Virus record (IMG/VR): IMGVR_UViG_2698536506_000004
DNA length: 5,554 bases
Direction: 5' to 3' (one strand)
Source: a virus
Lineage: Duplodnaviria; Heunggongvirae; Uroviricota; Caudoviricetes
Below are positions 2,221 through 4,876 of the stretch, piece by piece (within the stretch, counting starts at the first letter, position 1; the number at the start of each line of letters is the position of its first letter). The notes beneath the pieces are model-generated. The model did not search any database and was not told the DNA's origin. It saw only the letters and a program-made list of their open reading frames with translations. Both the position numbers and the translations under genes were made by a program.

Positions 2221-2275
2221 GCGGGTCCTTCCGGTGGGGAGGCCTGCCACGGGGCGGCAGCGGCGCGGATTTTCG
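2221..2275 (+). other. cos: cos site core: cosQ-like conserved block and cosN (predicted terminase nicking site; predicted 12-nt cohesive end GGGCGGCAGCGG at 2252-2263)
   Basis: 2221-2251 GCGGGTCCTTCCGGTGGGGAGGCCTGCCACG resembles the lambda right end (...GCGGGTCCTTTCCGGTGATCCGACAGGTTACG, from memory). 2252-2290 GGGCGGCAGCGGCGCGGATTTTCGCTATTTATGAAAATTTT resembles the lambda left end (GGGCGGCGACCTCGCGGGTTTTCGCTATTTATGAAAATTTT). The distance from the predicted left end (2252) to the Nu1 start (2440) is 188 nt, against 190 in lambda. Nick positions are inferred by alignment, not observed. Confidence 0.75.
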
Positions 2276-2301
2276 CTATTTATGAAAATTTTTCGGGAAA
2301 A

Positions 2302-2317
2302 AGCGTGTCGGTACTTC
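2302..2317 (+). promoter_or_regulatory. cosB R3-like terminase small-subunit binding element
   Basis: AGCGTGTCGGTACTTC aligns with the lambda R3 region (GGCGTTTCCGTTCTTC, from memory). Its core GTGTCGGTAC resembles the R1 arm CATGTCGGACC (8 of 11) in the same orientation. Confidence 0.45.
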
Positions 2318-2321
2318 TCGT

Positions 2322-2353
2322 GTATAACTCATTGTTTTTTCATCAATCACATC
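2322..2353 (+). promoter_or_regulatory. Putative IHF-binding region (I1-like) of cosB
   Basis: The A/T-rich block GTATAACTCATTGTTTTTTCATCAATCACAT is positionally and sequence-wise equivalent to the lambda segment CATAACTTAATGTTTTTATTTAAAATAC that contains the I1 IHF site. No clean WATCAANNNNTTR match was found, so this rests on analogy only. Confidence 0.3.
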
Positions 2354-2360
2354 CGTAAAA

Positions 2361-2415
2361 GGTCCGACATGAAAGTGCCCGAAAAAGACGTTTTTGAGCA
2401 CTTCCATGTCGGACC
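2361..2415 (+). promoter_or_regulatory. cosB R2/R1-like inverted repeats (55-bp near-perfect palindrome)
   Basis: Left arm GGTCCGACATGAAAGTGC (2361-2378) and right arm GCACTTCCATGTCGGACC (2398-2415) are reverse complements at 17 of 18 positions, separated by a 19-nt spacer CCGAAAAAGACGTTTTTGA that is itself partly symmetric. In lambda, inverted Nu1-binding R2 and R1 elements occupy the same position just upstream of Nu1. Confidence 0.6.
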
Positions 2416-2439
2416 CTGCATTTGATATGGAAATGTTTT

Positions 2440-2988
2440 ATGAAGGTTAATAAAAAGAAGCTCGCGGAAATTTTCAACGTGGATCCACGAACGATTGAAC
2501 GCTGGCAGTCTCAGGGGCTCTCTTGTGTCTCTGGTGGTAGTAAGGGGGTTGAATCTGTATTTGATACCGCCATGGCAATTCAGTGGTATGCGCAACGCGA
2601 AGCCGATATTGAAAACGAAAAACTCCGCAAAGAGACCGAGGATTTGCGTGCGGCTGCGGAATCAGATTTACAACCCGGCACCATTGACTATGAACGCTAC
2701 CGACTCACAAAAGCACAGGCTGATGCACAGGAACTGAAAAATGCCCGCGAAGAAGGGCTGGTACTGGAAACGGAATTGTTTACCTTCATTCTGCAACGTG
2801 TGGCACAGGAGATTTCGGGGATACTTGTACGTGTGCCGCTGACATTACAGCGTAAATATCCGGATATTTCACCGTCACACCTTGATGTGGTGAAAACTGA
2901 AATCGCAAAAGCCTCCAACGTTGCAGCTAAAGCTGGTGAGAACGTAGGCGGGTGGATTGATGATTTCAGACGCACAGAAGGCAGCTAA
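2440..2988 (+). CDS. nu1: Terminase small subunit (lambda gpNu1 homolog)
   Basis: Product [41 protein letters not shown]...[28 protein letters not shown]... is closely similar to lambda Nu1 (MEVNKKQLADIFGASIRTIQNWQEQGMPVLRGGGKGNEVLY...[28 protein letters not shown]..., from memory); 182 aa against 181 in lambda. Stop TAA 2986-2988. The ORF-track start at 2422 is an over-extension into cosB. Confidence 0.93.
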
Positions 2989-4876
2989 TGCAGCCGGTGC
3001 GATAGCAACAGGGCTTGTATCTCTCAATATTCCGGTACCACTGACGACAGTTCAGTGGGCTGATCAGCATTATTATCTGCCAAAAGAGTCTTCATATACT
3101 CCCGGGCAATGGGAAACACTGCCGTTTCAGGTTGCCATCATGAACAGCATGGGGAATGACCGGATCCGCACCGTTAATCTGATTAAATCGGCGCGTGTTG
3201 GTTACACCAAAATGCTGTTGGGGGTGGAGGCTTATTTTATTGAACACAAATCCCGTAACAGCCTGCTTTTTCAGCCGACAGATTCTGCGGCAGAAGATTT
3301 TATGAAATCCCATGTCGAACCAACGATAAGAGACGTTCCTGTATTACTGGAGCTGGCTCCGTGGTTTGGCAGAAAACATCGGGACAACACGCTTACCCTG
3401 AAACGTTTCTCCTCCGGTGTGGGATTCTGGTGTCTGGGCGGAGCTGCTGCCAAAAACTACCGTGAAAAATCTGTGGATGTGGTCTGCTATGACGAACTCT
3501 CCTCGTTTGAACCGGATGTGGAAAAAGAAGGTTCACCAACTCTGCTTGGCGATAAGCGTATCGAAGGTTCGGTATGGCCTAAATCCATACGCGGCTCAAC
3601 GCCCAAAATTAAAGGTTTTTGCCAGATTGAAAAAGCCGCGAACGAATCTGCACATTTTATGCGGTTTTATGTGCCATGCCCTCATTGTGGTGAAGCCCAG
3701 TATCTGAAGTTTGGCGATGATGCGACAACCTTTGGCCTGAAATGGGAGAAGGGCAAGCCGGAGACGGTGTATTACCTGTGTGAACATAATGGCTGCGTGA
3801 TCCGTCAGTCGGAACTTGACCAGACCGACGGGCGGTGGATTTGTGACAATACCGGGATGTGGACGCGTGACGGTCTGACATTTTACAGCGCCGGTGATGA
3901 GGAAATCCCGCCACCGCGCTCAATCTCGTACCACATCTGGACGGCATACAGCCCGTTCACCACCTGGGTACAGATTGTTTATGACTGGCTTGATGCACTG
4001 AAGGATCCGAATGGCGTCAAGACGTTCATTAACACCACGCTGGGGGAGCCTTATGAAGAGGCTGTGGCAAAAAAACTGAGCTTTGAGTTGTTGCTGGAAA
4101 AAGTCTGCCACTATGATGCGCAGGTTCCCCTGCGGGTGGTTTACCTGACCGCAGGGATTGACTCTCAGAAAAACCGTTATGAGATTTATGTCTGGGGCTG
4201 GGCTCCTGGCGAAGAAGCTTTTCTGATTGACAAGCAGATCATCATGGGGAGACCGGAAGATGAGGACACCCTTAAACGCGTTGATGCCGTGATCCGGAAA
4301 AAATACCGTCATGCAGATGGCACTGAAATTTCCATTTCCCGCGTCTGCTGGGATACCGGTGGTATTGACCAGGACATTGTGTATCAGCGATCCAGAAAAC
4401 ACGGCACTTTTTTTGTGCTCCCCATCAAAGGGGCGTCGGTGTACGGCAAGCCGGTGATCACCATGCCAAAAAAGCGAAACCAGCGTGGGGTGTTTTTGTG
4501 TGAGGTGGGTTCCGATACCGTCAAGGAAATGCTGTATGCGCGTTTTGCCCTGCCGGTGGTATCTGCCAGTGAAGTCGCACCGTATACCTTCCGTTTTCCG
4601 GATAACCCGGACATTTTTTCTGATGTTGAAGCTAAACAACTCGTGGCAGAAGAGCTGGTTGAAAAAGTTGTGAACGGGCGGGTGAAACTCCAGTGGGATG
4701 CCAGAAAACGGCGTAATGAAGCTCTGGACTGTCTGGTGTATGCCTATGCAGCGCTGCGCATTTCCGTTCAGCGGTGGCAACTGGATCTGGATGCACTGGC
4801 CCGCGCCAGAAGAGATGAACAGGACGACGATGAAATGACTATTGAAGAAATCGCGGCTGCTCTGAGTGGAGGATAA
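2960..4876 (+). CDS. A: Terminase large subunit (lambda gpA homolog; ATPase/endonuclease)
   Basis: ATG 2960 (GGTGG 2951-2955 upstream; the TTG at 2957 is an ORF-caller alternative), overlapping the Nu1 3' end by 29 nt as in lambda. The product is colinear with lambda gpA over its whole length, for example [27 protein letters not shown] against lambda VEWADANYYLPKESAYQEGRWETLPFQ, and the Walker-A-like KSARVGYTK at 3185-3211. Stop TAA 4874-4876; 638 aa against 641 in lambda. Confidence 0.95.

Follow-up and report, generated by a model that had tools for sequence, protein, structure and literature searches.

A long inverted repeat upstream of nu1 in a lambdoid Escherichia coli prophage very probably represents the R2/R1 pair of a phage-21-type cosB

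The 55-bp near-perfect palindrome located upstream of nu1 in the window (the whole 5,554-nucleotide stretch of viral DNA that we analysed, IMG/VR record IMGVR_UViG_2698536506_000004) very probably consists of the R2 and R1 boxes of a lambdoid E. coli prophage, in which they belong to a complex cosB of the phage 21 type, the subsite where packaging is initiated. This identification draws on homology of sequence and identity of position, on conserved boxes and on a small terminase subunit with an identical recognition helix, and the binding of proteins, the bending of DNA by IHF and the roles of the individual boxes would follow by analogy with the literature on lambda and phage 21. As R2/R1 of cosB-21, the feature has been described before. 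By this identification, the prophage joins the group with phage 21 packaging specificity, and the cos subsites obtain exact coordinates (Table 1). The result means little as a discovery; its uses lie in annotation, in predicting the helper phages or PICI-like elements that could exchange packaging with the prophage, and in defining the ends of its virion DNA.

Table 1. Positions of the cos subsites, the palindrome and the terminase genes in the window
Feature	Position	Strand	Description
cosQ	2223-2229	+	GGGTCCT, packaging-termination subsite; inside the old 'R4' feature of phage 21 (M81255.1)
cosN	2252-2263	+	12-base cohesive end GGGCGGCAGCGG; aligned to phage 21 cos, in which bp 1-12 are annotated as cohesive end
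R3	2301-2316	+	AAGCGTGTCGGTACTT, bp 50-65 from the cohesive end; 15/16 identical to phage 21 R3
I1, putative IHF site	2323-2337	-	maps onto the annotated phage 21 I1
R2	2359-2374	-	AAGGTCCGACATGAAA on the + strand; left palindrome arm; 16/16 identical to phage 21 R2
Palindrome	2361-2415	none	R2 core, spacer and R1 core; GGTCCGACATGAAAGTGCCCGAAAAAGACGTTTTTGAGCACTTCCATGTCGGACC
R2-R1 spacer	2375-2401	none	GTGCCCGAAAAAGACGTTTTTGAGCAC, symmetric A5...T5; varies between lineages
R1	2402-2417	+	TTCCATGTCGGACCCT; right palindrome arm; 13/16 identical to phage 21 R1
nu1, small terminase subunit	2440-2988	+	Pfam Phage_Nu1, E = 2.3e-83; RefSeq 'terminase small subunit' in E. coli C5
gene A, terminase large subunit	2960-4876	+	Pfam GpA_ATPase and GpA_nuclease; RefSeq annotation of strain C5 mapped over

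The palindrome described in the first-pass annotation proved to be real. Its 18-nt arms at 2361-2378 (GGTCCGACATGAAAGTGC) and 2398-2415 (GCACTTCCATGTCGGACC) show complementarity at all but one position (17 of 18), and the A5 and T5 runs that had been reported for the spacer are present (CCGAAAAAGACGTTTTTGA). A repeat finder, for which this was the longest inverted repeat of the window, extended the arms to 25 nt (2361-2385 and 2391-2415) with 22/25 positions (88%) complementary around a 5-nt centre. The claim that such a structure lies beyond chance was likewise upheld: scored at +1/-2 without gaps, the palindrome reached 16, compared with 8.75 ± 1.03 and a maximum of 12 in 60 first-order Markov shuffles of the window. 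The two palindrome arms hold the only exact copies of CATGTCGGRCC, and 24 nt lie between the end of the palindrome and the nu1 ATG.

When the 256 bases upstream of nu1 were compared with isolated phages by blastn, the cos region of phage 21 was recovered at ~80% identity together with several relatives. A near-identity megablast against isolated phages returned a single distant match, and the 'distant' mode of blastn was needed to reach phage 21. The annotations of phage 21 (M81255.1 and OL657228.1) were then transferred through a pairwise alignment. R4/cosQ, cosN, I2, R3, I1, R2, R1 and I0 of these records mapped colinearly onto the window, and the palindrome arms fell on the sites annotated as 'R2' and as 'R1, gp1/terminase small subunit binding site'. 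This was in agreement with the earlier suggestion, made from position, that the arms are inverted R2/R1 terminase-binding elements. The phage 21 records describe the boxes as gp1 binding sites and R2 as lying 'in opposite orientation to R3 and R1'; the older record, M81255.1, labels the R boxes 'putative'.

The order, orientation and coordinates of the subsites in the phage 21 cosB (M81255.1, X02501.1 and OL657228.1) match those of the window. With the first base of the cohesive end as bp 1, R2 occupies bp 108-123, R1 bp 151-166 and the nu1 ATG starts at bp 189, while phage 21 has R3 at 50-65, as in the window, R2 at 107-122, R1 at 150-166 and the ATG at 189. Relative to phage 21, the window carries a 1-bp insertion before R2; the R2-R1 spacing is 43 bp from start to start in both, and the identity of the non-coding sequence is about 80-85%. 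Since the coordinates from the cohesive end and the transferred annotations agree, we assign the arms to R2 and R1 of a cosB of the phage 21 type.

The subsites follow one another in the order cosQ, cosN, R3, I1, R2 (inverted), R1 and nu1. The element thus has the make-up of a complex (tripartite) cosB, with a place between cosN and nu1, three R boxes, I1, and the genes for Nu1 and gpA. The core TGTCGG is found on the plus strand in both R3 and R1, and its complement CCGACA in R2, which is inverted relative to the other two. The palindrome therefore results from one recognition sequence being present twice, as R2 and R1, in near-identical and oppositely oriented copies. R3 also forms an inverted repeat with the R2 region, detected as the second repeat by the repeat finder. 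For I1, the minus-strand sequence at 2325-2337, AAACAATGAGTTA, has one mismatch to the IHF consensus WATCAANNNNTTR, and this match alone is not significant; the evidence for I1 as a putative IHF site is its positional homology with phage 21 and not the match to the consensus.

The first-pass annotation had proposed comparing the arms across phages with related Nu1 proteins. A total of 80 IMG/VR loci encoding a Nu1 at least 93% identical to that of the window yielded 52 distinct upstream sequences, in which the cores of R3, R2 and R1 were essentially invariant. The R3 core GTGTCGGTACTT was nearly invariant in the 52 loci, and the GGGTCCT of cosQ, a subsite of 7 bp that is highly conserved (PMC4669245), was invariant in nearly all of the 52 upstream regions. 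The R2-R1 spacer, on the other hand, occurred as four haplotypes: GTGCCCGAAAAAGACGTTTTTGAGCAC in the window, ACGCCTAAAAAAGTCATTTTCGGGCAC, ACACCCGAAAAAGGGCATTTTAAGCGT, and GTGTCCGAAAATGCCTTTTTCTGGCGT in phage 21. The A-tract and the T-tract were kept in all four, and the helix-turn-helix of Nu1 was the same with all four. Invariant R cores combined with a diverging spacer make a pattern that fits protein sites. Owing to its spacer haplotype, which differs from that of phage 21, the palindrome of the window is longer and, as DNA, more perfect than the phage 21 palindrome (22/25 versus ~20/25 Watson-Crick pairs). The A-tract...T-tract of the spacer could provide an intrinsic bend or a minor-groove contact for the 'wing'. 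In lambda (bp 125-150, locus L004), the spacer holds a similar AAAGC-GAG-GCTTT. Outside these tracts, the spacer diverges freely.

Within this set, five loci (L032, L034, L035, L037 and L058) combine a phage-21-type cosB and Nu1 with an unrelated cosN region (...GGGGGTCATAGCACGCGCAAAAACGCGCTATTT...) at ~190-120 nt upstream of nu1. This subgroup keeps the cosQ sequence GGGTCCT. Several of its nu1 genes start with GTG, and one nu1 copy is frameshifted after codon 5. These loci may have a different cohesive end or may be decaying prophages.

The Nu1 homolog encoded in the window shares 94% identity with gp1 of phage 21 and 53% with Nu1 of lambda. At residues 17-25 it reads RTIERWQSQ, which includes E20 and S24 and does not differ from phage 21 gp1, while lambda has RTIQNWQEQ, with Q20 and E24. 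TerS residues 20 and 24, together with bp 56 and 59 of R3, are described as governing the discrimination between lambda and 21 (PMC4669245), and each of the two phages packages its own DNA more than 1000-fold better than that of the other (PMC4669245). Since both the box core CATGTCGG and the recognition helix of Nu1 are those of phage 21, the element should, judging from these sequences, have the packaging specificity of phage 21 and not that of lambda. The earlier reading that the arms point to a Nu1 specificity distinct from that of lambda is borne out insofar as the R boxes and the Nu1 helix-turn-helix are of the 21 type; what they represent is the classical specificity of phage 21. This 'distinct specificity' is thus not new and has already been characterised genetically against lambda (PMC4669245).

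The complex layout R3-I1-R2(inverted)-R1 is common to lambda, 21 and Monarch (PMC4669245). The cosB of lambda has perfect arms of 16 nt around a spacer of 26 nt at bp 109-166 (AGAAAGGAAACGACAG ... CTGTCGTTTCCTTTCT); this palindrome ends 25 nt before the nu1 ATG, and its score of 16 equals that of the window. R3 and R2 of lambda flank an IHF site, as they flank the putative I1 in the window. The R box itself differs, CTGTCGTTTCC in lambda versus CATGTCGGACC in the window. In lambda, R2 and R1 are an identical 16-bp sequence, from which R3 differs at 3 bp (PMC9026076). In Citrobacter and Kluyvera, lambda-type prophages carry these arms too, equally far from nu1. A different palindrome is present at locus L097 (Serratia proteamaculans), with arms of 11-12 nt (CGGGAAGTGATC...GATCACTTCCCG) at ~90-40 nt upstream of nu1, and the Nu1 homolog of this locus has a different recognition helix, RTITTWQSQ. 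This suggests that L097 represents a further cosB specificity class with an R2/R1-type layout.

N15 shares with the window a TerS-binding packaging site beside a lambda-like cosN, with the second R copy inverted. Its simple cosB, however, consists of a single R3 and of an rR2 inside the TerS gene, and upstream of that gene I1, R2 and R1 are missing, whereas the window has the full tripartite cosB. Inside gene A of the window, the sequence at 3311-3321, CATGTCGAACC, has one mismatch to the R1/R2 core and sits in a 30-nt stretch that is 73% identical to the R1 region. We considered this sequence as an N15-style rR2. Because it is absent from the A gene of phage 21 and because matches with one mismatch occur at a chance level, it is probably coincidental.

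In lambda, the small subunit is known to bind the R boxes, and the boxes are known to be needed for accurate nicking of cosN and the start of packaging; for 21, the same has been inferred (PMC4669245, PMC9026076). By analogy, each R box in the window would be bound by the winged helix-turn-helix of the small subunit encoded just downstream. IHF would bend the DNA at I1, as in lambda (PMC4669245, PMC9026076), and a dimer of the Nu1 DNA-binding domain could then dock on R3 and R2 across the bend. The docked Nu1 would anchor gpA, leading to accurate cosN nicks 12 bp apart. On this analogy, R3 would be the critical binding site for the small terminase subunit, and R1 an accessory binding site with the non-essential role that it has in lambda (PMC4669245, PMC9026076).

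Since the functional pair in the accepted model of lambda is R3 and R2 and R1 is dispensable, the dimer-docking model does not itself explain the symmetry between R2 and R1. What gives the element a wider interest is that a long, near-perfect R2/R1 palindrome with a symmetric A/T-tract spacer has been maintained in both the lambda and the 21 lineage although R1 is accessory. Conceivably, the R2/R1 pair has a second function beyond the docking of Nu1, either as an mRNA hairpin acting on the translation or processing of nu1, or as a bent module for a further Nu1 dimer that bridges R2 and R1 in the tetrameric terminase. We consider such a function unlikely; if it were true, it would explain why R2 and R1 are more alike than either is to R3 in both lambda- and 21-type phages, despite the dispensability of R1 in lambda.

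As an addition or an alternative to protein binding, the repeat could act at the RNA level, through a hairpin that the late (pR') transcript would form just upstream of nu1, affecting the translation of nu1, the stability of the mRNA or its processing by an RNase III-type activity. That the transcript would form a stable hairpin, as had been noted in the first-pass annotation, holds as predicted folding: the plus-strand RNA of 2340-2460 folds at -39.7 kcal/mol (z = -6.27), and no shuffle folds as well. All four spacer haplotypes fold into a near full-length hairpin of -26 to -33 kcal/mol, 88.6% of the cells were paired when 14 distinct R2-R1 haplotypes were aligned, and where the phage 21 haplotype deviates from perfect symmetry, most of the deviations are G-U pairs. 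The same alignment, however, contained no covariation, in that its combined pairing and covariation score was reached by 466 of 500 column shuffles, and among the 14 haplotypes no change on both sides relative to the commonest pair was found. At the dimorphic pairs, columns 15-41 and 16-40, G-C/T-A, A-T/C-G, G.T/T.G and the non-pairing A.C/C.A all occur. The presence of all four allele combinations at these columns indicates free recombination and not selection for pairing. In addition, the cores of the arms are conserved in sequence beyond mere complementarity and have a further copy in R3, which is not part of a hairpin, as is expected for a repeated protein-binding motif. The stem of the hairpin stops 24 nt short of the ATG and leaves out the ribosome-binding region. 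We therefore rejected a selected RNA or DNA hairpin as the main explanation, there being no covariation beyond shuffles in the 14 haplotypes, and judge a role of the transcript hairpin, whether alternative or additional, to be quite improbable. The late-transcript hairpin is a by-product of two inverted protein sites, and nothing indicates that it has a selected function.

Two further comparisons concerned RNA structures of known kinds. An intrinsic terminator was rejected since the stem is followed by CTGCATTTGATATGG, without a T-run, and 2361-2415 was absent from the terminator scan. No covariance model of Rfam 15 gave a match that reached the gathering score, and two matches remained below the threshold (E = 0.34).

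Alternatively, R2 and R1 together could form a symmetric operator for one Nu1 dimer or tetramer, or for another dimeric protein, in which the spacer, bent by its A-tract and T-tract, would be included. Three observations speak for this: R3 is less like R2 or R1 than these two are like one another, in the window as well as in lambda (PMC9026076); the symmetric A-tract...T-tract is seen in the four spacer haplotypes, with a similar AAAG...CTTTTT in lambda; and the R2-R1 spacing is constant between the window and phage 21. The cores of the half-sites are, however, ~41 bp apart from centre to centre, a distance that a compact wHTH dimer could not span unless the DNA is sharply bent, and in the published lambda model the dimer is placed on R3 and R2, with R1 accessory according to lambda genetics (PMC4669245). 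Nor is there, at the palindrome or immediately next to it, a promoter-like site for such an operator to control, since the sole match within 2150-2550 lies on the minus strand at 2195-2167, ~165 bp upstream. We regard a symmetric operator as very unlikely, and what is recognised is probably not the R2/R1 palindrome as a whole. Finally, many prophages are defective, and this copy could be so too, with the site as a relic, but a chance palindrome or a non-functional relic is extremely unlikely given a palindrome score of 16 against a null maximum of 12, arms that are invariant in the 52 distinct related sequences while neighbouring bases vary, and the homology of the arms to annotated functional sites of an active phage, phage 21.

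While the cosB of the window is very probably of the phage 21 type, its cosN, GGGCGGCAGCGG, differs from the GGGCGGCGACCT of lambda and 21 at bp 8, 9, 11 and 12, which all belong to the right half; the CG dinucleotides that flank cosN are retained. This allele with its flanks was found in 69 IMG/VR contigs, 13 of which fitted a strict phage-21 R2/R1 pattern. The other 55 mostly had an unrelated cosB, but they include at least one phage-21-type cosB that the strict pattern missed, that of L112, which has the R2 variant GGTACGACATG. As the allele is mostly associated with other cosB types, the cos of the window is a mosaic in which a widespread cosN allele is joined to cosB-21. Variation in the right half of cosN is documented as common and tolerated (PMC4669245), and in view of this and of the 69 contigs we rejected the variant cohesive end as a novelty.

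The ribosome-binding region of nu1 (2424-2439, GATATGGAAATGTTTTATG) is without a good Shine-Dalgarno match, the window having GAAA where the phage 21 record annotates GGGT. In phage 21, the annotated IHF-like site 'I0' overlaps this ribosome-binding region.

The cos region of the window is 100% identical to that of a chromosomal prophage of E. coli strain C5 (NZ_CP010122). In C5, the genes are ordered as holins, endolysin, small ORFs, terminase small subunit, terminase large subunit, head-tail joining protein and portal. Within the lysis-gene region of the window, positions 374-680 are a run of 307 N (masked or unsequenced), so that ORFs listed across it, such as 141-716 and 198-710, are not interpretable. 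A related cos region was found in 139 of 5426 complete E. coli genomes, and among the matches listed, those with at least 98% identity were mostly from bovine isolates.
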